This document shows, piece after piece, positions 2,225-64,000 of a DNA stretch of 64,000 nt (position 1 is the first letter of the stretch; every line of letters begins with the position of its first letter). This DNA is from Chiloscyllium plagiosum. Taxonomy: Eukaryota. Location of the stretch: assembly GCF_004010195.1 (NCBI RefSeq), contig NC_057719.1, positions 10,907,974 to 10,971,973 of the forward strand, read 5' to 3'. The position numbers were made by a program, and so were the translations under genes. The notes beneath the pieces were generated by a model, which did no database searches, was not told where the DNA came from, and saw nothing but the letters and a program-made list of their open reading frames with translations.

Positions 2225-5065
2225 GAGATACTCAGGGACAGGAGATACCTGAGAGAGATTACAAAGGGACAGGAGATACCTGAGAGAGATTACACAGGGA
2301 CAGGAGATACCTGAGAGAGACTAAACAGGGACAAGAGATACCTGAAAGAGATTAAACAGGGCAGGAGATACCCGAGAGAGATTAAACAGGGACAAGAGAT
2401 ACCTGAGAGAGATTACACAGGGGCAGGAGATACCTGAGAGAGATTACACAGGGCAGGAGATACCGGAGAGAGATTACACAGGCACAGGAGATACCTGAGA
2501 GAGATTACACAGGGCAGGAGATACCTGAGAGAGATTACAAAGGGCAGGAGATACCTGAGAGAGATTACACAGTGCAGGAGATACCTGAGAGAGATTACAC
2601 AGGCACAGGAGATACCTGAGAGAGATTATACAGGGCAGGAGATACCTGAGAGAGATTACAAAGCGCAGAGATACCTGAGAGAGATTACACAGGGACAGGA
2701 GATACCTGAGAGAGATTAAACAGGGACAAGAGATACCTGACAGAGATTACACAGGGACAGGAGATACCTGAGAGAGATTATACAGGGGCAGGAGATACCT
2801 GAGAGAGATTACACGGGGACAGGAGATACCTGAGAGAGATTACACAGGGTCAGGAGATACCTGAGAGAGATTATATAGGGGCAGGAGATACCTGAGAGAG
2901 ATTATACAGGGACAGGAGATACCTGAGAGCGATTACACAGGGACAGGAGATACCTGTGAGCGGTTGCACAGGGACAGAAGATACCTGTGAGAGATTACAC
3001 AGGGACAGGAGATACCTGAGAGAGATTATACAGGGTCAGGAGATACCTGAGAGAGATTACACAGGGTCAGGAGATACCTGAGAGAGATTATACAGGGGCA
3101 GGAGATACCTGAGAGAGATTACACAGGGACAGGAGATACCTGTGAGAGATTACACAGGGACAGAAGATACCTGTGAGAGATTACACAGGGACAGGAGATA
3201 GCTGTGAGCAGTTACACCGGGATAAGAGATACCTGAGAGAGATTACACAGGAATTGGAGATTCCGGAGAGAGATCACACCGGGGCAGGAGATACCTGAGA
3301 GATTACCCAGGGTCAGGAGATACCTGAGAGCGATTATACAGGTACAGGAAATACCTGAGAGAGATTACACAGGGACAGGGTATACCTGAGAGAGATTATA
3401 CAGGGACAGGGTATACCTGAGAGAGATTACACAGGGTCAGGAGATACCTGAGAGAGATTACACAGGGACAGGAGTTACCTGAGAGAGATTATACAGGGTC
3501 AGGAGATACCTGAGAGAGATTATACAGGGTCAGGAGATACCTGAGAGAGATTACACAGGGACAGGGTATACCTGAGAGAGATTATACAGGGACAGGGTAT
3601 ACCTGAGAGCGATTACACAGGGACAGGGTATACCTGAGAGAGATTATACAGGGACAGGGTATACCTGAGAGATTACGCAGGGACAGAGTTACCTGAGAGA
3701 GATTACACAGGGACAGGGTATACCTGAGAGATATTATACAGGGACAGGAGATACCTGAGAGATTACACAGGGACAGAGGATACCTGAGAGAGATTACACA
3801 GGGGCAGGAGATACTGAGAGAGATTACACAGGGACAGGAGATACCTATGAGAGATTACACAGGGACAGGAGATACCTGTGAGCGGTTGGACAGGGACAGA
3901 AGATACCTGAGAGAGATTACATAGGGACAGGAGATACATGTGAGAGATTACACAGGGAGAGCAGATACCTGAGAGAGATTACACAGGGACAGGAGATACC
4001 TGTGAGCAGTTACACCGGGATAAGAGATACCTGAGAGAGATTACACAGGAATTGGAGATACCGGAGAGAGATGACACAGGGGCAGGAGATACCTGAGAGA
4101 TTACCCAGGAGCAGGAAATACCTGAGAGATTATACAGGGGCAGGAGATAGCTGAGAGAGATTACACAGGGACAGAGAATACCTGAGAGAGATTACACAGG
4201 GACAGGAGATACCTGAGAGAGATTACACAGGGACAGGAGATACCTGAGAGAGATTACACAGGGACAGGAAATACCTGAGAGAGATTACATAGGGTCAGGA
4301 GATACCTGAGAGAGATTATACAGGGACAGGAAATACCTGAGAGAGATTACACTGGGACAGAAGATACCTGTGAGAGATTACACAGGGACAGGAGATAACT
4401 GTGAGCAGTTACACCGGGATAAGAGATACCTGAGAGAGATTACACAGGAATTGGAGATACCGGAGAGATATCACATCGGGGCAGGAGATACCTGAGAGAT
4501 TACACAGGAGCAGGAGATACCTGAGAGAGATTACACAGGGACAGGAGATACCTGAGAGAGATTACACAGGGACAGGGTATACCTGAGAGAGATTACACAG
4601 GGACAGGAGATACCTGAGAGGTTACACAGGGACAGAGGATAGCTGAGAGAGATTACACAGGGACAGAGGATACCTGAGAGAGATTACACAGGGACAGGAG
4701 ATACCTGAGAGATTACACAGGGACAGAGGATACGTGAGAGAGATTACACAGGGGCAGAAGATACCTGAGAGAGATTACACAGGGACAGGAGATACCTGAG
4801 AGAGATTGCACGGGGACAGGAGATACCTGAGAGAGATTATACAGGGGACAGGAGATACCTGAGAGAGATTACACAGGGCAGGAGATACCTGAGAGATATT
4901 ACACAGGGACAGGAGATACCTGAGAGAGATTGCACGGGGACAGGAGATACCTGAGAGAGATTAAACAGGGAGAGGAGATACCTGAGATATTTTACAGGGT
5001 CAGGAGATGCCTGAGAGATTACGCAAGGACAAGAGATACCTGAGTGATTACGCAAGGACAGGAGA
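2225..5065 (+). repeat. Minisatellite, ~31-bp unit GGAGATACCTGAGAGAGATTACACAGGGACA, roughly 90 copies
   Basis: Directly visible tandem array with 29-32 bp variant units. Confidence 0.98.
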
Positions 5066-5172
5066 TTAGATTAGATTAGATTAGTTACCTTGTGGAAACA
5101 GGCCTTTCAGCCCTACAAGTCCACACCGATCCGCTGAAGCGCAACCCTCCCATACCCCTACATTTACCCCTT
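5065..5172 (-). mobile_element. HE1-like SINE 3' tail with (ATTAG)n
   Basis: Reverse complement of the SINE tail at 18180-18260 (..ggcctgtatccacactgtagggaatctaatctaat). Confidence 0.8.
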
Positions 5173-6057
5173 CACAGATAGCTGATAGTGATTACACTGA
5201 GTAGGATATCTGAGTGACAGGAATTAGAATAGGAGTACATGACATCACTTTGACATTTCCTTGTAAGTTATCCAACATCCCAAATTAAATGTGTATTGGT
5301 ATTCTTTCACTGCGACTGGTCCGATATTCTGGAAGCACCTACCTAACAGCTCCTTTGGAGCATGAGATGACAATTACCCAGAAAACAAGTGTTCAAAGAG
5401 GTTGTCCATGTTCACTGTCCCAAAGTAACCAGAATTGGGCTATAAATTCTGCCTTTTTTTACTGAAGCTGATGTTGCACCAATTACTTTAATGGAAAGAT
5501 AAGGAGTGGCATTATCTGAAAGGCACCAGAGCAATAATGGGAGACATGGAAAGAGAATGGGAATGGGATACTGAGATTGCATGACCAGCCATGATCGTAT
5601 TGAATGGTGGTGCGGGCTCAAAAGACCGAATGGCCTCCCCCTGCACCTATACTCTATGTTTCTTTGTCTATGTTGCAAATCTGAGATGCTCAAGATCCCC
5701 AAATTGGAAGAACACAGAAATCTCAGTGGGTTGTAGAGCTGGAGAAAGTTAAATAGATGGGTGAGGTGAGGCAATGGAGGGGTTTGAAGACAAGATGAGA
5801 AAATGACACGATGAGAATGGAAAATTGCAGTTTTGCTTGACCAGTAGCCAATGTATATCAGTAAAGCTGAGATGATGTTTAAAGATGGGAGTAAAACCAG
5901 AAAGACATGAAATAGGCAATCCTCAAAATAACCAAGACATCTTTACAGGATTCAGCAACAGATGCACTGATACCAGGTCAATATTGGGTATCACTATCGT
6001 GGTGTGAACAGGTATCCCTCATGACATATTCAAAGCCTCATAGGTATTTATCTGCCA

Positions 6058-6410
6058 TATTCATTCATGGGAAATGGGCGTCATTGGCTAGGTCAGCATT
6101 TAGCGCCCATTACTAATTTCCCAGAGGGCAATTAACATTGCTGTGGGTCTAGAGTCACATGTAGGCCAGACTGGATAAGGATGGCAGATTTCCTTCCCCA
6201 AAGTACTTTCGTGAATCAGATTAGTTTTTACGATTCTTGTTATGAGATCACTGTTAGATTAATTTATTTTAAAAATTATTTACCAAATTATTTTTATTGA
6301 ATTTACATTTCACCAGCAGCCATGGTGGGATTTGAACCCATATCCCCAAAACATTAGCCTGCGCTGCTGGATTATTAGTTCAGTGACATTACCACTACAT
6401 CACCACACCA
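6058..6410 (-). mobile_element. tRNA-derived SINE sharing head and tail with LINE family 2
   Basis: Minus strand carries a B-box-like GGTTCAAATCC and a tail similar to gggcaataaatgctggcc; same family as 23975-24385, 30850-31145 and 55735-56070. Confidence 0.75.
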
Positions 6411-6594
6411 GAGAAATATAGGAGATGAAAGCAGGAATATTTCATAAAATTTTCAACTGCACTGTTGTGATAGATTCTATGTGGGAGTGATTATACATAA
6501 TATAAAAACTAGTCAGTGACAATTATAAAGGTTTAATTACTTGCTATCCTAACTTGGAACTACATTGCTGTTTCTTCAGTGTCACTGGAACCCC

Positions 6595-7120
6595 TTCCTC
6601 ATGTACATATGATTGACAGCAAGAGTACATCATTTGGCCCTTTGAACTCAACGACCTCAACTCCACATTCCTGCCTGTACCTCAAAATTTTCATTCCCTT
6701 GTTGACCAGAAATGTATCCACCTCTACTTTAAAGATATTCAAGGACTCTGCTTCCAACACGTTTTGAGGAACAGAGCTCCAACAAAGCACCACCCTCAGA
6801 GAGAGGATTTCTTGTCATCTCTGTCTTAAATGGGTTGAACCTGATTTTTTTAAACTGTGATCTCTAGTTCTAGATTCTTCCACAATCCTTTCCATTTTCA
6901 CTCTGCGCAGACCCCTCAGGATTTTGTATGTTTCATTCAAAACATGTCTTATTCTTCAAAACTCAAATGAATACAGGCAGTCCCTGGGTGATGAACGCAT
7001 GAGTCCATTCATAAGTTACTATGTTTCATCCTCAAAATTAAGAGCATTGTGAGATCTTGCCCGTTTGTACCAGTATTTGTAAGTTGGAGATTGTCCAATG
7101 TTTCCTCATAAGACAACCTA
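6595..7120 (-). mobile_element. CR1 LINE 3' fragment
   Basis: ORF 6599-6793 W.SVPQNVLEAESLNIFKVEVDTFL resembles the CR1 ORF2 C-terminus. Confidence 0.75.
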
Positions 7121-7799
7121 TTCTAACAGCACTGTGGGGCCACCCGCCCACTACAATGATGCATTGCTCAACAAGGTGGCTATCTCAATCCTTCTCAAGG
7201 GTTCTGAGGGACGGGCAATAATTGCTGGCCTCATCTGAAATGTTCACGTCCTGGAATGGATATTTTTCAATAATGAACTATTGTACTTTTGTTTTACATG
7301 TTAGGTTAGTAAGAATTCTACTCCGGAAATAATGCTATCACTTGGCGTAATGACCAAGGAATAGTATACCAGTAAGGCCAGGGAAAAGGAGGACAGATTC
7401 TGGATGAAAATGAACAACATCCCATTCAGGACAGATGACGATTGAGAAGACAGTGAACTTGAAATCAACTGCAGAGCAGAGTTTATAAACATTAAACTTG
7501 TATAAAAGTAGTAATACTGGACTCTACAAATTGAGTTCAATGTCAATAAATTTAATGAGTTTATATCTGAGGCACTTTTATTCGAAATTTCTGTTCGGTG
7601 CTTTTTTTGCTGTATATCAAAGTAAAGAAAACAATTGAGAATAAATAATTTTCTAATTTTTCAGCATGAGGCTCCTCAGCTTTAAGGATAATACTCTGGT
7701 CTCCTGCTACAATGCTATCCACAGAACATCATTCCCTTCCTGTGATAGTGAGAATTTCATTTCTTTGGGAATTGTTATGCTGCAGTCAAGCCAAATAGG

Positions 7800-7880
7800 A
7801 TGAGAGAGAGGGAGGGAGAGAGAGAGAAAGAGAAACAGAGGAAGATAGAGCAAACGAGAGACAAACATAGATAGAGACAA
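7800..7880 (+). repeat. GA-rich low-complexity tract
   Basis: gagagagagggagggagagagagagaaagagaaacagag. Confidence 0.85.
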
Positions 7881-7949
7881 GACTCTCTTTCTATCAGTCA
7901 GAGGCTTAGAGATTATCAAACCTCCAAAGGACTTTAAGGATGGATTAAA

Positions 7950-8042
7950 AAAAAATGCAAACTGCTGAAAATCCATAGCACAACTGACAGCATCAGTAGA
8001 GAGAAAAGATGAGTTTAGGATTTCAGCTGTGGGCCCTTCAAG
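7950..8042 (-). mobile_element. Penelope-derived short repeat, family B (degenerate single arm)
   Basis: ctgctgaaaatccatagcacaactgacagcatcagtagagagaaaagatgagttt..ttcagc..cccttca is similar to 28260-28362. Confidence 0.5.
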
Positions 8043-8429
8043 AGAGTTGCTTAAAGCAGTAACTTGGAATTTTCAACTGCAGTAATCTTCCAGTTATAAG
8101 GAGTTTCACAATGTTCTGTTTGACAAAGCTCCTGTTTTCATGTCTTCTCCTGAAAAATTGGCTCCTAAATGCAGGGAGATTGGACAAGGAGATAAATTCC
8201 AATTAAAATCATGGGTGAACAGAAAGACCATTACTAGTAAGGCTTGTGCTCCTTTGTGTCTCATAGTGCTGTGCTACACTGGCTGCTCCTGCATACAAGT
8301 TGCCCTTGATAATAGCAGCAGGTTGAATGGGCCCTCAGGCAGCACTGGGCATTTGCCCAACAACAAAACAAAAATTAATCCGTTCCAATAAAATTAGTTT
8401 AAGCAAAAAAAAATCTGACAGGAGAGAAA

Positions 8430-8473
8430 GGGGGCGAGGAATGGGGGCGAGGAATGGGGGCGAGGAATGGGGG
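8430..8473 (+). repeat. 13-bp tandem repeat (GGGGGCGAGGAAT)x3 + GGGGG
   Basis: Direct reading. Confidence 0.95.
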
Positions 8474-8829
8474 AATAACGGCTTTCTTGCTGCCCCTGCA
8501 GCTTATTCCCGCCATAGCAAGCACCCATTCCGTCCAAAAGTATTCTCACGATGAAGGATGGGGTCTCTATCAGGTGTGGTATGATCACAAAACCTGGCAT
8601 TGAGAACCTAAAGAGCACCATATTCAGCAGGGCAATAGAACCATTAACTCCTTACGTCCTGCGGAGGTTAAAACTGGTCTGACCAAGAAACAGGCCCCCA
8701 TGTTGCTAGTGTTGTTGAAAGTATATTTCCATTCGCACTGCTGTTTCTGAAAGGCTCACTGTGAATGGAGGTAATATCATTTGATGCTAGCGTGTGGGTG
8801 GAAGGGGGGAAACAGGCACATAATGTGTC

Positions 8830-11570
8830 CCACTGATGGACTACATGGAGAATTAAAGATATTAAAGCATGAGGATTGTAATGTTGCCAAAAAGAGCTGA
8901 GAGCCGGAGGATCGAGTAGATTTTAGAATTCAGTAGAGGATAAGAAATTGGTAAAGTGAGAGAATATGAGAGTACTAAGAGAGACATGAGAACAGATTAT
9001 AGACTATTCCATTGGTATTGCAACAGGAAGAGACAGCTGAAAGTAATCACAAGCCCCTCGGAGGCAGGGACAAGTGAATGGGGATTAATGGGAAAGTAGG
9101 ACATGGGAGAGATTTTAAACAAACACTTCATGGCAGAAGATACAAAAGACATTATGAAAATGCAGAATTAAGGTTCTAAGAAGAATGAGGAATGAAAGCT
9201 GATAAATCCCCATGGCCTGATAACCCACATCTCGGAGGACTAAAGGAGGTGCCCATGGAAATAGTGGAAACGTTGGTTGCACCTTACAAAATTCTGAAGA
9301 TTCTGGAACCATCCTGGCAGATTGGAGGTTAGAAAATAAAACATCTCTATTTAAAAAAAGGAGAGAGAGAGAAAACTGGAAATTATAGACTGGATTAGCT
9401 TAACATCAGCAGCAGGGAAATTGCTGATGACTTTTATTAAATAAAGGTGATAAGCCACAACTGACTGGGCTAGCACGAGAAATCAAGTCACAAAAGTGAA
9501 ATATTTTGAAATAAGTATACAAGATTCCCTAATTTACCTGATTTTCAGACTCAGGTAGAAAGAAATCTTGGACCAGATTTGTGTACAACTTATTCCAAAT
9601 AATTAGAGTCTAGCTACAGGTAAATAGTTACAAACCATCAGCATACAACAGTACAAATGAAAATTCTAATCTTCTTATAAATTCTCCCTTACACACCCAC
9701 ACAAATAGACAAATAGACAGGGAAGCTAAGTGACAGGAAGAGAAAATCTGGGAGGCAGATCAGTGACTTCTGTTCATAGGTTAGCAAAGTGATCCTTATG
9801 ATTCTTATTCTAATCAGCACATTGCTTTCTGGTCATCTTTCTCCCAATGTTCTTACTGGTTTGCAAAAGACACATAAAGTACTTCTGACTTATCTGTTAA
9901 ATGTCACAGCTTGCAACAACTGCTGAAGGGCAGATAAACTGGTTTTCCTCAGACTTGAAGTGGGTTTTGGCTGCAGAGAACAGACGGACAGCTCCTGATC
10001 TGGTGGAGATCAAAAATCACTTCTCTTTGAATCTTGTTCCCAGCCCCAAGCTGTTCAGCTGTCAGTGAATCAATCACATGGTTGTGAGCAGGCAAAAAGC
10101 TTTTGTCATCAGTAAATGGTTGCTAATCTATGAACCAATCAACCTCTTGATGCCGCCCAACAGCATCAGTACGCAACCCCTCAGTTCCAGTTCAGCTATT
10201 ATAAATCTTCATATACTGCTTGTTTAAACAGCTGCGCAAACAGCATGCTTTCCACAAGTGTCAGGTCACTTGTTTTTTGAACCATACAGCAAATCTTTCA
10301 AACATTGGTTTTAAATGAATTCTACCTCGTTTTGCCTTATAATTTTGAAAAGCATAAAAATGATACCAGGACACTTAGAAAGTACTAACAGGATTACACA
10401 AAGGCAACATGGATTTATGAAACAGAAACTGAATTTGACATACCTACTGGAATTGATTGAGGACATTTCTCACAGAATAGATGGGGGAGAACCAGTGGAT
10501 GTCGTATATTTGGATTTACAGAAAATGTTTGACAAAGCGCCATGTTAAGAGATTAGTATGCAAAATCAATGGGATTAATAGTAATTAACTGGCATGGAGC
10601 CATATTTGGATAGCAGTCAGGATGCAGAAAATAGGAATAAATGGAAGGTGTTAGTGAGTGGGATACCACAGGAATCAGTCCTTGATATTCAGAATACATA
10701 TTAACAACTTGAATGACAGAATCAAACATAATATTTCCAAATTTTCTTATGACATAAAACTAGGTGGGATTGTCAGTAGTGAGGTGGATGTAAAGAGCTG
10801 TTTAGACAAGTTCAAAAAGTGGCAGATGCAGCATAAGAAAAATAAGTGTGAAGTTGTCTGCTCAGTAAAATAAACAGAATGGCAAAGCAACAGTTATATG
10901 ATGATAGGTTGGGAAATATTGATGTACAAAGGGTGTCCTTACACACTAGCCCCTAAAAGCAAGTATGTACGTGCAGGAAGCAGCTAGGAAGGCAAAAGAT
11001 ATATGAGCCTTCATTGCAAGACAGTTTGAGTTGTAGGAGCAAGAAAGTCTTACTGCAGCTGTATAGGGCCTTGCTAAGACTACATCAAGAGTACTGTGTG
11101 TACATTTGATTTTCTTACCTAAGAAGCTAGTCATAGAGGTAGCTGTAATGGTTCACCAGTCTGATTCCTGGGATGAAATGTTTGTCATATAGAGAGGTTG
11201 GGTTGATTGGGTCTGTGCTCACTGACTCTGAGAAAAATAAGCGATCCAATTGAAACATTTAATAGTTGAAAATTCTTCAGGGACTTAGGTAAGCTGTTGT
11301 GAAAAAATATTTTCATTCCTAGCTGTGGAGTTTTAATTTAGGGGTTGGCGGAGGGTTTGGTTGCTGAGGTGTGGAAAAATTTCTGTTTTTTCAATCTCTG
11401 GACCTTGCTATCGCAGAGGTCTGTGGATGGTCAGCCCTTGAGTGCGTTGAAGGGAGAAGCTGGTCAATTTTTGGGCATGAAGGGAATTATGGGAGATTGT
11501 TGGGTGGAACTGAAATAGAAGATCAGCCAACTGCTAAACAGTGGAGCCATCCTGAGAGAGCAAAGGGCTC
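8830..11570 (+). mobile_element. Decayed CR1 LINE ORF2 (RT region), interrupted by an insertion at ~9445-10350
   Basis: GNYRLDSLTS-like at ~9380; QRQHGFMK..LTYLLELIEDI..GEPVDVVYLDLQKMFDK (ORF 10315-10548); INNLND..ISKFSYDIKLGG (ORF 10658-10873). Confidence 0.85.
9445..10350. mobile_element. ~0.9-kb unclassified insertion within CR1, possibly a solo LTR
   Basis: CR1 coding sequence stops near attaaa..gtgata and resumes at atgataccaggacacttagaa; the intervening DNA is unrelated to CR1. Confidence 0.45.
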
Positions 11571-27767: not shown

Positions 27768-27862
27768 ATGATGAAGAGTCTTCTAGACTTGAAACGTTAG
27801 CTTGCTCTCTCTCCACGGATGCTGCCTGACCTACTGTGATTTCCAGCATTTTTTATTTTCAG
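27768..27862 (+). mobile_element. Penelope-derived family B arm with degenerate hammerhead
   Basis: atgatgaagagtcttctagacttgaaacgtt..ggatgctgcctgacc. Confidence 0.6.
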
Positions 27863-28259: not shown

Positions 28260-28362
28260 ATGAGGAGTAAAAACAGAAATTGCTGGAGAAGCTCAGCAGA
28301 TCTGGCATTTTGTAGGGAAAAATCAGAGTTAACGTTTCGGGTCGAGTGGCCCTTCCTCAGAG
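28260..28362 (-). mobile_element. Penelope-derived family B arm with hammerhead core
   Basis: Minus strand reads CTGAGGA-AGGGCCACTCGACCC-GAAACGTT-aactctg. Confidence 0.75.
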
Positions 28363-46964: not shown

Positions 46965-47290
46965 CAGTAACTCAGTGGTTAGCACGGCTGCCTCATAATG
47001 CAAGGTACCCAGGTTCAAGTCTAGCCTCAGGCAATTGGCTGTGTGAAGTTTGATTTGGAGATGCTGGTGTTGGGCTGGGGTGTACAAAGTTAAAAATCAC
47101 ACAACACCAGGTTATAGTCCAACAGGTTTAATTGGAAGCACACTAGCTTTCGGAGCACAACTCCTTCATCAGGTGATTGTCCTGTGTGATTTTTAACGGT
47201 GTGAAGTTTGCATACTCTCCCTGCATCTGATCAAGAGATGTGCAAGTTAGGTGGATTGGCTATGCTAAATTGTCCATCGTATTCATAGTG
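46965..47290 (+). mobile_element. HE1-like SINE interrupted by a family C element
   Basis: Head ctcagtggttagcacggctgcctca; V-domain split at gtgtgaagtttg. Confidence 0.75.
47053..47198 (-). mobile_element. Penelope-derived family C insertion with hammerhead motif
   Basis: 12-bp TSD gtgtgaagtttg (47041-47052 / 47199-47210); minus strand CAC-CTGATGA-AGGAGTTGTGCTCC-GAAAGCTA-GTG; 15-bp inverted repeat gttaaaaatcacaca / tgtgtgatttttaac. Confidence 0.8.
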
Positions 47291-52059: not shown

Positions 52060-52780
52060 GGTAACTCTCCTCGCTCATCTCGGAGCAAGTCAAAGGTCAG
52101 AAATTCTGTGCCAAGTAATTCACCTCTTGCATCTGCAAAGCCCATTTACCATCCACGTTGGGGGTAGGATGGAATACTTTCTCTTGTCCGGATGGATGCA
52201 ACTCCAAGAAGAAACTCAATGCCATCCAGGGCAAAGCAGCCCACTTGATTGGCACGACATTCAACATTCACTTCCTTGTGGGCGGCACGGTGGCACAGTG
52301 GTTAGCACTGCTGCCTCACAGCGCCAGAGACCCGGGTTCAATTCCCGCCTCAGGCGACTGACTGTGTGGAGTTTGCTCGGAGCAAGTCAAAGGTCAGAAA
52401 TCTGTGCCAAGTAATTCACCTCTTGCATCTGCAAAGCCCATTTACCATCCACGTTGGCGGTAGGATGGAATACTTTCTCTTGTCCGGATGGATGCAACTC
52501 CAAGAAGAAGCTCAATGCCATCTAGGGCAAAGCAGCCCACTTGATTGGCACGACATTCAACATTCACTTCCTTCAACACCGATGCACAGTGGCAGCAAAG
52601 TATACCATCTACAAGATACACTGCTACAGTTCAGCCAGACCCCTTCCACAGCACCTTTGGAATCTCCAATCTCTACTATTTAGAAGGACAAAAGCAGCAA
52701 ATACACAGAAACATCACCACCTGCAAGTTCCCCTCAAGTCACATGATGCTGACTAGGCACGATTCTGTAACTCCTTCACA
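52060..52780 (+). mobile_element. LINE family 2 3' fragment carrying a 199-bp tandem duplication
   Basis: KKLNAIQGKAAHLIGT; catcaccacctgcaagttcccctc. Confidence 0.75.
52278..52375 (+). mobile_element. HE1-like SINE 5' head only (98 bp)
   Basis: A box tggcacagtgg, B box ggttcaattcc; ends within the V-domain. Confidence 0.85.
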
Positions 52781-54693: not shown

Positions 54694-55139
54694 CCAAACG
54701 ATGGTTAAAGTTAGAAAAGTTCAGCCTAACAGAAGAAAAGAACTTGCCTTTATATAGCACCCTTCACAACACTGGGATGCCCAAACCTTTTTCTCGTCAA
54801 ATCAATTATGGTCACTGTTCTGATGTAGCCACTGTTGTGATATAGGAAATTCAGAAAGCCAATGTGTGCACAGTAAGCTCCCACAAATGGCAATGGAGAT
54901 AAACAGCCGCCTACTTTAGGTGCTTCCTGAAGGATAATATATTTTGCCAGAAAACTGAGAGAAATCTTATGCTCTTCTCTGAAAAGTGCAAAGGAAAACT
55001 GGAAGGGATATCAGACTCCTGTGACGTTGGACTCTCATAACACAGGAAGGACTTTTCTGAATACATCATGTGGCTCCTCTAACTCTCCCACCATGAAAAT
55101 ACACTGTGCTTAACATAATTTTATGATATACAACACATA
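54694..55139 (+). repeat. Left copy of a local inverted duplication (partner 57262-57670)
   Basis: Direct reverse-complement match. Confidence 0.93.
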
Positions 55140-55319
55140 TGTCTGCTTTGCTGTAATGCAATTGCTAACAAATTTGCAGGATTGTAGAGAGTTCAGAGCA
55201 TGGTTTTAATGAACAAGCAGTTTTATGCAAATAAAGAGAAAATAATGTTCCTGTAATAAGAAACAAAGACTGTATTGTGCTTTTCTCAACTTGAGGACAT
55301 CCCAAAGCAGCTTCATATA

Positions 55320-55657
55320 GTCCCTACAGTGTGGAAACAAACCATTCAGCCCATCACATCCACACTGACTCTCCGAAGAGCATTACACCCAGATTCACTG
55401 CCCCCCCCTCCCAACCCCCTTACTCTATCCTGGAACCTTGTGTTTCCCATGGCTAAACTATACATCCCTGGACACATTGAGCAATTTAATATGACCTATC
55501 CAGCTAACCTGTACATCTTTGGACTATGGGAGGAAACCAGAGCACCAAGCAGAATCTCATGTGGACACGAGAACAATGTGCAAACTCCACACAGACAGTT
55601 GCCCGAGGCTGGAATTCAACCCTAGCACGGTGCTAACTACTGAGCCACTGTGCCACC
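55320..55657 (-). mobile_element. HE1-like V-SINE
   Basis: tgcaaactccacacagacagttgcccgagg..gctaactactgagccactgtgcc. Confidence 0.8.
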
Positions 55658-55734
55658 AAGGTTACAGCCTATTATATCATGTCATGTTCACCCATTGTTG
55701 CAATGTGGGAAACTCATTAAGTCCATTCCTTCCT

Positions 55735-56070
55735 TCATTTATTCATGGGAATGGGTATCACTGCCTATTGCTAATTGTCCATTGATCGTAGTAGCTTGCT
55801 AGGGCTGCTTCAGAGGGCAGTTAAGAGTCAACCAGATTGCTGTGAGTCTGGAGTTACCTGTAGGCCACACCAGCAGATTTCCTTCCCTAAAGGACATCAG
55901 TGACCCAAACTGCTTTTACAACAAGTGATGATAATTGTCATGGCACCATCACTGATGCAAGGTTTATCTTCCAGATGTTTTGTTGAATTTGAATCTCACC
56001 AGCTGCTCTGGCGTGAACCAATGTCCAAATCTCCAAATTATTTGCCCAGTGACATTACTATCACACTACC
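55735..56070 (-). mobile_element. tRNA-derived SINE (LINE-family-2 partner), longer junction variant
   Basis: gcttgctagggctgcttcagagggcagttaagagtcaacc. Confidence 0.7.
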
Positions 56071-56743
56071 AGCAAAATTAAAATGACAAAGTTATGCAAA
56101 ATTATTGATATAACAGTGAACACTTACAAAGTGCTGTAAAGCCAATGATGGACTAAATAAATTGTAATCAATGCTGTAATATACGACATGCAAACAGTCA
56201 ATTTGCTCAAAGCAAGCTCTGTCAACAGAACTGAAATAATAGACCAGATTAACTGTCTTCTTGATGTCAGTTGAGGGATGAATATTGACTACCACAACAA
56301 AGAGTACTGCCCTTCTTCACACAGTGCCATAAGATCTTTTACATTCACCAGAGAGAGAAAATGGCCCCTTGGTTTAAAGTGTCATACAAAAAGTATTCCT
56401 CTCACACTGCAATGCTGCATTGATGGAATAATCTAGATCAGGAGCTCAAGTTCTCTCCTGTAGAATTTGATTCACAGGGAAAAAGAGACTGAAGGGTCCA
56501 AATTATACTGTCTGAGTCCTCAGTGCTTTTTGTAAAAACACCATCTCATCCTTCATTGATTTTGTGCATCACCTGTTCTGGAATATGGGAGCAGAAGCAC
56601 TGCACAGTGTCCTAAGGGTCTAACCAAGTTTCTATGCAAGTTTAACATTTCAATTCTATTCCTCAAGAGGGGGAAACTCGAAGGAACATTGAGAACAAAG
56701 CAAACAAAAGCAAGTAGAGAATATAAGGAATGTATTAATGTTA

Positions 56744-57176
56744 AAGAGTCATACAGCACAGAAACAGACTCTTTGGTCCAACCAGTCCATTCTGAACATA
56801 ATCCCAAACTAAGCCAGTCTTACCTGCCTGCTCCTGGCTTATATCCCTCTAAACCTTTCCTATTCATGTATTTCTCCAAATGTTTTTTTTAAACATTGTA
56901 ATTGTGCCTGCATCCACCACTTCCTCAGGAAGTTCATTCCACATGTGAACTACCCTCTGTGTAAAATAAATTGCCCCTCATGTCTTATTTAAATTTCTCT
57001 ACTCTCACCTGGAAAATGCGCCCCTACTCTTGAAATCCTCCATCTTGGGGGAAAAAAAACACCTCCCATTAACCCTATCTATACCCCTCATGATTTTATA
57101 TAAGGCCATCTCTCAATCTCCAGTGAACCAAGTCCCAGCCTATCCAGCCTTTCTTTGTTACTCAAACCTTCCATAC
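56744..57176 (-). mobile_element. HER1/CR1 LINE 3' end
   Basis: gagtcatacagcacagaaacagactctttggtccaacc.. Confidence 0.82.
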
Positions 57177-57261
57177 CTTTCTTTGGGCAGAGAAAAAGTA
57201 AAAAATATTGTCCTAAGCTGCGCTGAATCTTCAGCCCTGATTGTACTTTGTGGGTGAGTTT

Positions 57262-57670
57262 TATGTGTTGTATATCATAAAATTATGTTAAGCACAGTGT
57301 ATTTTCATGGAGAGAGAGTTAGAGGAGCCACATGATGTATTCAGAAAAATCCTTCCTGTGTTATGAGAGTCCATCGTCACAGGAGTCTGATATCCCTTCC
57401 AGTTTTTCTTTGCACTTTTCAGAGAAGAGCATAAGATTTCTCTCAGTTTTCTGGCAAAAAATATCATCCTTCAGGAAGCACCTAAAGTAGACGGCTGTTT
57501 ATCTCCATTGCCATTTGTTGGAGCTTACTGTGCACACATTGGCTACATCAGAACATAATTGATTTGACAAGAAAAAAGCTTGGGCATCCCAATGTTGTGA
57601 AGGGTGCTATATAAAGGCAAGTTATTTTCTTCTGTTAGGCTGAACTTTTCTAACTTTAACCATCGTTTGG
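57262..57670 (-). repeat. Right (inverted) copy of 54694-55139
   Basis: Reverse-complement match with 7-bp and 30-bp deletions. Confidence 0.93.
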
Positions 57671-61238: not shown

Positions 61239-61954
61239 TCTTTTATTACTGAATGTCCTCTTTATTGCCAATTAGGTGTGGTCCCAGAAATAACATAGGA
61301 AACACAGTGAGCTTTCTCACACAGCAATGTGATTCGATCAGATAATATGTTTTAATGTTTGATTGAGGGATAAATGTTAGCCAGGACAATGGGTGTAGCT
61401 ACTCTGTTCATCTTCAAAATAGTGCCTGAGGATTCCTTTCCATCCACCCAGAACAGCAGAAAGGGTCTCATTTCAAATTTCATCTGAAACCTTTTGGCAC
61501 TTCAGACTGTGCAGCACTCCTTCAATACCGCATTGGAGTGTCAGCCTTGATTTTGCGCTCAAATCCAGCTGAGAAACTTTACCTTTCTCACTCAGAAGCA
61601 ATAACACTGCCCAATAGCTAAGGCTGACACAAGTCCAAATTTGACTATTTGCTCTTTTCTTAATTTATCTCTAACTGAATCCAATCCTTTGTCTGCAATA
61701 CTTCCAGCCTTACATTCCAGTATGCACCTATCTTCCACTATTCCTGCTCTTTCAATTATCAGTGTCTAATCTTTACGCAAATACAGAAGGAGGCATCTTA
61801 ATTTCAGGAAACATCTCACCATCAACACTGTTGGTTAGCTCAGAAATCAACAAAACCTCTTTTCTTAAAAGGTCACTGCCCATGGAGTTGGCTCCAGTGT
61901 CTTTCTAACATTTGCTTGAAGGAAATGTGTGAATGGTCATCACAGTCGTATGTG

Positions 61955-62297
61955 GGGTGGTACGGTGGCTCAGTGGTTAGCACTGCTACCTCACAGTGCC
62001 AGGGACCCGGGTTCAATTCCAGCCTCGAGTGACTGCCTGTGTGGCATTTGCACGTGCTCCCTGTGTCTGCATGGGTTTCCTCTGGGTGCTCCGGTTTCCT
62101 CCCACAGTCTAAAGATGTGTAAGTTAGGTGGATTGGCCATGTTAAATTACCCACAGTGTTCAGAGATGTTTAGGTGAAGTGCATTAGCCATGGGGAATGC
62201 AGAGTTAAAGGGATAGAGTAGGGGGATGGGTCTGGGTGGGATGCTCTTCGGTGGGTTGGTGTGGACTTGTTGGGTCGAATGGTCTGTGGGGATTCTA
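61955..62297 (+). mobile_element. HE1-like V-SINE, near full length
   Basis: A box tggctcagtgg, B box ggttcaattcc, V-domain and tail. Confidence 0.88.
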
Positions 62298-62356
62298 TAT
62301 AAAAAATATTGAACCATGCAGATGTGCTATTCATAAATAAAACCAGACTGTAAATT

Positions 62357-62589
62357 TGCCTATGCAAAGTGGAATCATGTGAATATTTCAGTCAAGATGA
62401 GAGTGGTGCTGGAAAAGCACAGCAGGTCAGGCAGCATCCGAGGAGCAGGAAAATCCATGTTTCTGATGAAGGGCTCCTGCCCGAAACGTCGACTTTCCTG
62501 CTCTTCTGATGTTGCCTGACCTGCTGTGCTTTTCCAGCACCACTCTCATCTTGACTGAAATATTCACATGATTCCACTTTGCATAGGCA
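62357..62589. mobile_element. Palindromic family A insertion whose inverted repeat extends into flanking DNA
   Basis: tgcctatgcaaagtggaatcatgtgaatatttcagtcaagatgagagtggtgctgg has its exact reverse complement ending at 62589; CTGATGAAGGGCTCCTGCCCGAAACGTC at 62463-62490. Confidence 0.9.
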
Positions 62590-62810
62590 GATTGGAAAAG
62601 TTACAGCTTTAAATGGTTGATCATAGCCCGTACCATACAACCTGTCACACTTGGGCACTATTTGAAGTGGACAACTTGACAGAGGTGGAAGATGTAGGAG
62701 GTGTGGTCTAGTCCAACATTTTTGGTGCAACGTACAGTCCAGCATTATTTGCAGCAACTTTTACATCAATGCACAGCAACAGGGCAACAACAATACAACT
62801 TGCCATCATT

Positions 62811-62943
62811 CAGGAATCCTGAAGAAGGGCTTATGCCCGAAACGTCGATTCTCCTGCTCCTCAGATGCTGCCTGGCCTGCTGTGTTTTTCCGGCATCATA
62901 TTTTTCAACTCTGGTCTCCAACATCTGCAGTCCTCACTTTCTC
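62811..62943 (+). mobile_element. Family A single-arm insertion
   Basis: TSD caacttgccatcatt (62796-62810) / caacttgccattatt (62944-62958); intact 3' end ..catctgcagtcctcactttctcc. Confidence 0.85.
62814..62851 (+). ncRNA. Minimal type I hammerhead ribozyme motif (Penelope-associated)
   Basis: GAATC [stem I] CTGAAGA A GGGC-TTAT-GCCC [stem II] GAA-ACGT-C / GATTC [stem I']; predicted cleavage after C62846. Confidence 0.75.
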
Positions 62944-64000
62944 CAACTTGCCATTATTGTAAGGATTAACAACAACCCATCATACATGCAATGCAATGTT
63001 GGTGCTTTCTTTCACTGGACACTTTATCTAAAGAGGACCTGGGTTGCACTGGTCATGTAGGGTTACAGAATTATGTAGATAAAGGCCATTCAGGCCACTG
63101 TATGTTCATTAACATTTTGAAAATGATATCCCTTGCGTCTCACCCCTTGTTCATAAACCCCTGGACGTTTCCCTCACCATCTATTTATCCATCTGGAAGT
63201 GATTACTGAACCAGCTTGCTTTGTCTCTTAGACAATGCATAATAATTAACTTTAATCATCATGATACCTCTTTATTGTTCTTTGGCATTAATAGTTACTC
63301 TGTTGCTTTAACTTCAGCATAGCCATCATTCTGTAATAATTTCATGTCTGCTTTGCTCTCTCTGCAAATAAAGAGTTACTTCATGAATATTCATTTACTT
63401 TTTAGTGATAAATTCCGTACAGACAGGACAGTCACCATCATGCTCTTTGCTGTCTTTTCAAAGAGTCAACAATCCAATGAGCAGGTATAACTCTCATCCA
63501 TTGTGGAGTGCTGGCTGATGTGAAGTGACTGTATGAAAATCCTGATTTATTGAAAGTGATCCTTCTGGCCCCTAAAGGAGATTGTGTTCCCTTGCCTTGA
63601 AAACATAATGTTCCTTGGGCAGCACTTAAAATCCACTTATCAATCAGTGAAAAACATCAGGAGAGGCAGGCATCCCCATTTTTTAATAACCTCAAATCCA
63701 TAGCAAATGCAAAAGGTTTACTATTAATGATAACAAGGTGTTTGAGCTGATGATCTCAGGAGATTGATTACAGTAGGAAGAATACAAGTTGCTATGTGAT
63801 CCAAAATTCTCATAGAAATCAAATTGCGCTTCACCTGGAGTGTTTACATAACAGAGAGAATCACAAACTCTAATGAAAGGCTGAAAACACAAGCTTGAGA
63901 AACCAGGGTGACAGAATAACCTGCCGCTTGATCCTGGAGGGAACAGTGGTCGCTACCCTGCACTTTCAAACTGTTGAGCTTTCTCCTCTCATCACAAGTA

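Follow-up and report, generated by a model that had tools for sequence, protein, structure and literature searches.

A 133-bp insertion in the 64-kb window (the whole stretch of DNA analyzed here) carries a structurally complete minimal hammerhead ribozyme, and this raises two questions: to what kind of mobile element the insertion belongs, and whether the hammerhead of this copy can function where it now lies. The best explanation overall, in which we have high confidence, is that the insert is a short, 5'-truncated terminal module from a retroelement of the Penelope-like type (PLE) that encodes an RT and a GIY-YIG endonuclease. The anatomy of the insert, its homology to coding copies and the end-point distributions of the family support this explanation directly; from these we infer the priming route, the 5' end of the RNA, the dependence on dimers and the inactivity of the focal copy.

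The insert is flanked by 15-bp target site duplications (TSDs; 62796-62810 and 62944-62958, + strand), which are identical at 14 of 15 positions, and the 133-bp length and the TSDs given in the initial annotation are recovered when the sequence is read again. It begins with a 9-nt inverted junction piece (62809-62817, - strand), a reverse-complement match to element positions -3 to +5, which has the last two T's of the left TSD in common with it. This is followed by the terminal module (62818-62944, + strand; element positions 0 to +126), which is a pLTR with the hammerhead plus a tail, and of which C62944 is also the first base of the right TSD. Element positions are counted from C3 of the hammerhead (62819) as +1, which places the cut between +28 and +29. 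The tail (62905-62944, + strand; its 5' limit is approximate) lies between the 3' end points of the family, at about +85 to +97 and at +126. The hammerhead itself, also on the + strand, is composed of the 5' strand of stem I (62814-62818, derived from the junction, the family form being AUUC); the core CUGAAGA (62819-62825), extended to 62826 by an extra A between A9 and G10.1; the 4-bp stem II (62827-62830 pairing with 62835-62838, the whole hairpin being 62827-62838), with a loop of 4 nt that is variable among subfamilies; the segment 62839-62846 with GAAA (62839-62842), the ACGU palindrome (62842-62845), predicted to form an intermolecular helix III, and C17 (62846), after which the cut is predicted; and the 3' strand of stem I (62847-62851). 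These parts are at the places first assigned to them.

The motif is not a chance occurrence. A strict hammerhead descriptor that does not depend on the family finds 22 matches in 632 kb of non-N sequence (the window and 60 genome stretches) versus none in each of five shuffles, and a relaxed descriptor finds 69 matches (the window and 100 genome stretches) versus 0-1 in shuffles. The focal motif has the core of the minimal type I hammerhead of PLEs, with CUGANGA, GAAA and UH and with stem II closed by G10.1-C11.1. Its CUGAAGA and GAAA had been recognized in the initial annotation, but the unpaired A62826 had been missed; an extra base between positions 9 and 10.1 is present in 66 of the 69 relaxed matches. 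With the ACGU remnant of stem III, a double hammerhead is formally possible. The earlier description of a PLE-type minimal hammerhead (type I) that keeps a palindromic remnant of stem III and lies within a TSD-flanked retrotransposed insert, is well supported, and so is the preferential conservation of its core: across the family copies the core is kept in 1202 of 1244 cells (96.6%, C17 being excluded from the core set), compared with 92.8% for stem II, 89.8% for the downstream sequence and 73.7% for N7 and loop II, these figures coming from non-independent copies in which CpG decay affects G12, the palindrome and C17. Within the family stem II hardly varies, and changes that keep its pairs are seen, by inspection, only between related families (L136, L210). 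In the Rfam search of the whole window no family reaches the gathering score, and at E ≤ 10 hammerhead families are absent from 62300-63000; the matches obtained there, of the miRNA type on a neighbouring palindrome and one weak snoRNA, were set aside as hairpin look-alikes.

Other hammerheads were seen beside this family. A second, unrelated family of minimal hammerheads, at 47172 (- strand) and in L106, L142, L209 and L224, combines an AGCU palindrome and a CUA triplet with a stem II of 5 bp and another set of stem I pairs. In a third family (L120:9735, L142:2588, L156:5702 and 7119) the extra A is replaced by an extra U, and stem II is longer. An older relative of the focal family, with the downstream motif in common, is found at 28360 (- strand), and others, as weak matches, at 27811, 33701, 38448, 38770, 38842, 47552, 49672 and 51155; some of these older relatives have a larger loop II and a GUU triplet.

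The identity of the host element follows from the copies that extend beyond the module. Copies that are 95-96% identical to the focal module run upstream into the end of a GIY-YIG domain with a CX4CxxC linker (L007, L033, L039), and among the 30 best loci continuation into this endonuclease end is found for L005, L007, L010, L022 and L024. In the translations of L032-L042 the linker precedes GIY-YIG, and RT motifs are located further upstream. One locus, L058, has a 469-aa RT-to-endonuclease frame that ends about 160 bp before the hammerhead; its Pfam matches are weak (RVT_1, E 0.006; GIY-YIG, E 0.08), while L057 matches RVT_1 with E 2e-10 and L035 and L033 lack Pfam matches at 0.001. When the five top relatives of the L058 frame were scanned, GIY-YIG was detected in all five and RVT_1 in four. 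The weak matches of L058, the match of L057 and the relatives with both domains point to one frame with an RT followed by a C-terminal GIY-YIG. The module is also present directly before the ORF start (L087, L076, L075 and the 30-locus set), so that the same 127-133 bases are found both after and before the ORF, as for a terminal repeat. The pLTR, the inverted 5' copy, the tail at one end and the TSD are likewise those of an endonuclease-positive PLE.

The linker is of the type common to the Neptune and Nematis clades, and by this motif the element is placed with them: a CX2-5CxxC linker before GIY-YIG is described as defining the Neptune clade and as common to Nematis (PMC8557442). Naming of the clade through protein relatives gave no result, as none of the six clusters carries a name. 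Every coding copy seen in the fetched loci is broken or partial, and an intact full-length element with both repeats was not found among the 25 RT-bearing and 60 5'-region loci. In the window, the seven frames of at least 150 aa contain no coding part of the element, apart from one frame that runs through a module copy. The main long frame appears to begin some 40 nt beyond the tail. By analogy with the PAc element of anole, the AUG in loop II was considered as ORF start; it was rejected, as its frame runs for about 53 codons before closing and other subfamilies have lost the AUG. At L087 and L076 the out-of-frame reading from this AUG, about 53 codons long, overlaps what is likely to be the main start, and the tail end at their ORF start resembles a pyrimidine tract followed by AG, which might be read as a splice acceptor.

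The family is very abundant. There are 13 module matches in the window, the focal copy included. A sample of 100 stretches of 10 kb, spaced evenly and amounting to 958,700 non-N bases, gave 147 matches, corresponding to about 118 insertions. Sampled in this way by homology, the 3.56-Gb genome would hold about 400,000-440,000 insertions; one exact 42-base string occurs in 15,999 genomic copies. The 3' ends of 160 matches fall mainly at +126 (48 matches) and in a second cluster at about +80 to +97; further ends at +114 and +122 are points where other subfamilies diverge from the reference. The two clusters match the two internal reverse-transcription start sites reported in vitro for PAc (PMC11167929), an analogy that suggests a similar priming here. 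For the matches with the long end the TSDs are mostly 10-19 bp, and none was found for 19 of the 44. Among the 29 inverted head-to-head pairs in the sampled stretches, a long arm is combined with a short one in 26, and in the other three both arms are long. End points and arm pairs fit the known insertion units of PLEs, which contain a tail and an inverted pLTR (PMC8557442, PMC3846280). Two symmetric palindromes depart from the usual arrangement, in which a long arm is paired with a short one and the TSD is direct. One, at 62353-62593, has 111-nt arms (94%) around another copy of the focal hammerhead, both arms being short-ended, and about 40 nt of host-like flank is duplicated there in inverted orientation; the other (L098) is similar but has two long arms.

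At the 5' side, 58 of the 147 matches start at -8 to +3 and just two at the cut site (+26 to +32); 41 start further upstream, 25 inside the hammerhead, 16 beyond +32, three at -13 to -9 and two at gaps. These are BLAST starts, which are approximate, and the position windows are of unequal width. Where a copy spans the cut site, its template RNA was uncut at that site. This is in agreement with the in vitro data for the anole element, for which uncleaved RNA is described as the dominant substrate (PMC11167929).

These distributions bear on the possibility that the insert is a non-autonomous ribozyme-bearing retroelement, retrozyme- or SINE-like, with its own master copy and spreading via self-cleaved circular RNA. 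Module-only copies do outnumber those extended upstream, and read coverage increases over tenfold at the edge of the hammerhead. Non-LTR retrozymes also have in common with the insert a type I hammerhead, a short non-coding unit and a PLE ancestry (PMC7229834; bioRxiv 10.64898/2026.07.22.740005), and animal retrozymes, which are reported from one chondrichthyan with an average of 363 bp, are described as derived from PLE pLTRs (bioRxiv 10.64898/2026.07.22.740005). However, the units of retrozymes, of about 150-450 bp, are repeated in tandem and give rise to circular RNAs (PMC7229834), whereas the focal copy is solitary and represents the 5'-truncated end of a coding element. Its upstream junction is not found beyond 8 nt in any other of the 30 best loci. 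Head-to-tail arrays of the short unit are absent from the 959 kb sampled, where 11 direct pairs lie 36-886 bp apart, and the two matches starting at the cut site, out of 147, are the only ones with the unit end expected for a cleaved RNA. Neither is a separate non-coding unit seen, the focal module being 95-96% identical to the ends of coding copies. The retrozyme reading is largely refuted for the focal copy, and we regard it as extremely improbable; the retrozyme-like family proposed initially finds no support, as its 127-133 bases terminate RT + GIY-YIG copies and precede the ORF start.

Direct two-hammerhead units nevertheless exist in the family and speak for this alternative. At 12 of the 30 ORF-start loci, a single insertion consists of a module, a 5' piece of the ORF and, joined directly to this, a second module that starts at -3 or -4 and is followed by host DNA. 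In ten of these (L160, L162, L163, L164, L167, L170, L178, L180, L186 and L187) the hammerheads are about 320-580 bp apart, and in L166 and L169 about 1.7 kb. The breakpoints range from +312 to +1522 and are mostly different, three sharing +351, and therefore the units look like separate insertion accidents, which counts against a retrozyme with its own master. An added G is present at the join of ORF and module in L178 and L186. Such units would arise by template jumping from an RNA end at -3, and they are possible precursors of retrozymes. They bear a resemblance to retrozyme dimers, and as mini-tandems they provide a concrete path by which PLEs could give rise to retrozymes.

The second question, whether the focal hammerhead is functional, depends on its stem I. 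The 5-bp stem I of the initial annotation is present in this copy, but it is not the form of the family, in which AUUC pairs with GAUU, with one mismatch in most matches and perfectly in one subfamily. In long copies of all subfamilies AUUC is kept at -3 to 0, and the sequence upstream diverges. The GAAU of the focal stem I is supplied by the inverted junction piece at 62809-62817, which stops exactly at the family 5' boundary (-3); similar inverted junctions are found at L004 and L011. As read from the sequence, the 5-bp stem derives from this 9-nt piece. All six stem I positions are paired in the focal copy only, one of the 69 relaxed-descriptor matches, and its unusually tidy fold is likely to be an accident of how the copy inserted. 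The lesson of this copy is that a 'complete' fold can arise as a by-product of a junction.

It could be argued that the strengthened stem I makes the focal copy catalytically active in host transcripts, its origin being the one described above. The core bases and the CpG-prone positions are all intact, and the excised 38-mer folds as a hammerhead in the energy model, with a stem I probability of 0.95-0.98. The double hammerhead is predicted at -21.5 kcal/mol for the focal copy, compared with -9.3 kcal/mol for the parent type. Furthermore, in run X20, which by its label is from an element-holding species, family RNA is abundant on both strands as passenger sequence, so that partners for pairing in trans may exist; the molecule ends in these reads show no pile-up, the library being a fragmented poly(A) single-cell library that is blind to starts or cuts. 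When the surrounding sequence is included, however, the predicted pair probability of stem I drops to 0.05-0.28 for the construct 62800-62870 and to 0.01-0.03 for 62700-63050. In context, a junction hairpin (62809-62823) is predicted with a probability of 0.87-0.96 to sequester the core, and activity in place is unlikely because this hairpin would occupy the catalytic core. The minimum-energy fold predicted for the dimer, at -25.2 kcal/mol, also differs from the active form, and a loop-loop tertiary partner is not evident. An active focal copy is therefore considered very unlikely. The genomic copy is probably inert in place, being a lone unit whose core would, according to the folding model, be caught in the junction hairpin.

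The 5' boundary at stem I suggests how the RNA of the element begins. Among the exact matches, C precedes AUUC 11,646 times and G 2,609 times, and the counts for A and T are 1,263 and 481; of the first 30 C-preceded matches, read by eye, 22 run on upstream. At +1, the control boundary, non-parental bases were counted 698 times for G, 335 times for A and 721 times for T, so that G makes up 59.9% of the non-parental bases at the -3 boundary and 39.8% at the control, with G:T ratios of 5.4 and 0.97. An extra G at the 5' junctions of full-length L1 insertions is reported to reflect the mRNA cap (PMC11702581). The G excess fits a capped, uncleaved RNA that starts at the first base of stem I, although it is partly confounded: of the first 30 G-preceded loci, also read by eye, nine are simple TSD copies, three with a G that is absent from the target and six in which the TSD itself ends in this G; the remaining 21 contain filler or an inverted arm, and in about eight of them this accounts for the G. 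On this sequence pattern, the hammerhead's first base is probably where the element RNA, capped and uncut, has its start.

The pile-up of 5' ends at stem I may instead reflect stalling of the RT, joins at microhomologies or a splice junction, with no capped start, and this we take to be a possible, though somewhat doubtful, alternative. It would account for starts that are spread over -8 to +25, for a control boundary that is itself G-rich (40%), and for the G's of the first 30 loci that come from the inverted arm or the last TSD base; moreover, an intron of D. virilis Penelope extends just up to the 5' end of helix I (PMC4209133). It does not account for the difference in G:T ratio between the two boundaries, nor for the added G that is directly visible in L235, L241, L256, L030, L167, L178 and L186. 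The joins at -3 lead to host DNA or to varied ORF positions and not to a single upstream exon, and an initiator-like sequence is located at -3. We take this sequence to read as an initiator, with the consensus YYANWYY.

When a capped start is combined with the other end points, a joint life cycle can be proposed, whose prospects of being correct we consider evenly balanced. The cap would be placed at the first base of stem I, at the -3 initiator; reverse transcription would start about 90 and 126 nt into the RNA, one site for each DNA strand; run-off would copy the cap as an extra G, with an occasional jump into the ORF of another RNA; and the ribozyme would be a cap-proximal switch. If this is true, the ribozyme cut removes a 31-nt capped leader and does not make the template for retrotransposition, and the two-hammerhead products of template jumping are ready-made seeds of the animal non-LTR retrozymes. 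The uncut template, likely capped at stem I, that the copies suggest matches the in vitro results obtained with a different clade, and the approximately 16,000 exact 42-base copies together with the approximately 400,000 insertions give statistical access to the in vivo role of the PLE hammerhead.

For the focal insertion, the element protein would have nicked the target site, and reverse transcription would have begun inside the RNA at +126. About 130 bases would have been copied up to the likely 5' end of the RNA, after which a second priming event or a fold-back at the top strand probably added the 9-nt inverted piece, a route suggested by a 2-nt (TT) microhomology. Repair would then have left the 15-bp duplication. 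The hammerhead is the element's own minimal type I motif, predicted to cleave in the element only as a double hammerhead, through ACGU pairing, or with the help of protein. The RNA copied at this site was uncut there, since the copy includes both sides of the cut.

A hammerhead of this kind is ordinary for Penelope-like elements and has been known since 2014, when minimal hammerheads were described in the pLTRs of metazoan PLEs by Cervera and De la Peña (PMC4209133). With those motifs the focal one has in common the type I core without a real helix III, the palindromic 15.2-16.2 positions, the extra base between 9 and 10.1, the G10.1-C11.1 pair, the short helix I and the occurrence of thousands of dispersed single copies from truncated elements (PMC4209133). 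Unlike the Schistosoma motif, with a stem II of 7-8 bp, the stem II is 4 bp here, and the present estimate of copy number, obtained by homology rather than with a descriptor, greatly exceeds the 4,000-9,000 given for coelacanth and Xenopus (PMC4209133). The same account mentions minimal hammerheads in fish Xena, Poseidon and Neptune elements, sharks not being named in its accessible part, and reports for the minimal PLE hammerhead in vitro no cleavage of monomers and low cleavage of multimers (PMC4209133). Cleavage by the anole hammerhead is described as requiring protein (PMC11167929).

One frame that carries an RT and, behind a CX2-5CxxC linker, a C-terminal GIY-YIG is as in the endonuclease-positive PLE units of Neptune and Nematis, and the 5' truncation, adjacent inverted pLTR, 30-40-bp tail at one end and TSD are also preserved, whereas the focal inverted arm, of just 9 nt, is unlike the usual units (PMC8557442, PMC3846280). 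When compared with PAc, the Poseidon element of Anolis carolinensis (Frangieh et al. 2024, PMC11167929), the similarities are the hammerhead in the pLTR, the internal RT starts at two sites that bound the tail, the extension of both strands and the uncleaved RNA substrate. The clade is different, as the linker motif is present here; and whereas the ORF of PAc starts in stem II, the long frame here appears to begin about 40 nt after the tail, and the loop II AUG lies out of frame and is retained by only some subfamilies (PMC11167929). A literature search, with most subscription journals outside its range, gave no report of the shark family or of a capped start at stem I, and the supplements of PMC4209133 and bioRxiv 10.64898/2026.07.22.740005 may list chondrichthyan motifs. 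PMC6155905 was rejected as a report of the shark family, since in its accessible text 'shark' denotes shape only.

Several other repeats are present in the window. A 2.8-kb purine-skewed tandem array (2225-5066) has a period of about 31 bp, with copies that are about 86% alike. A direct duplication of about 199 bp (98%) is found at 52079 and 52376 (52079-52573), and an inverted pair of 446 bp (89%) at 54694 and 57262 (54694-57670). A tRNA-headed SINE-like repeat at 61953-62300, presumably of the shark HE1 type and taken as the sign of a shark genome, has further copies near 5085, 17996, 18600, 46962, 52280, 53901 and 55337.
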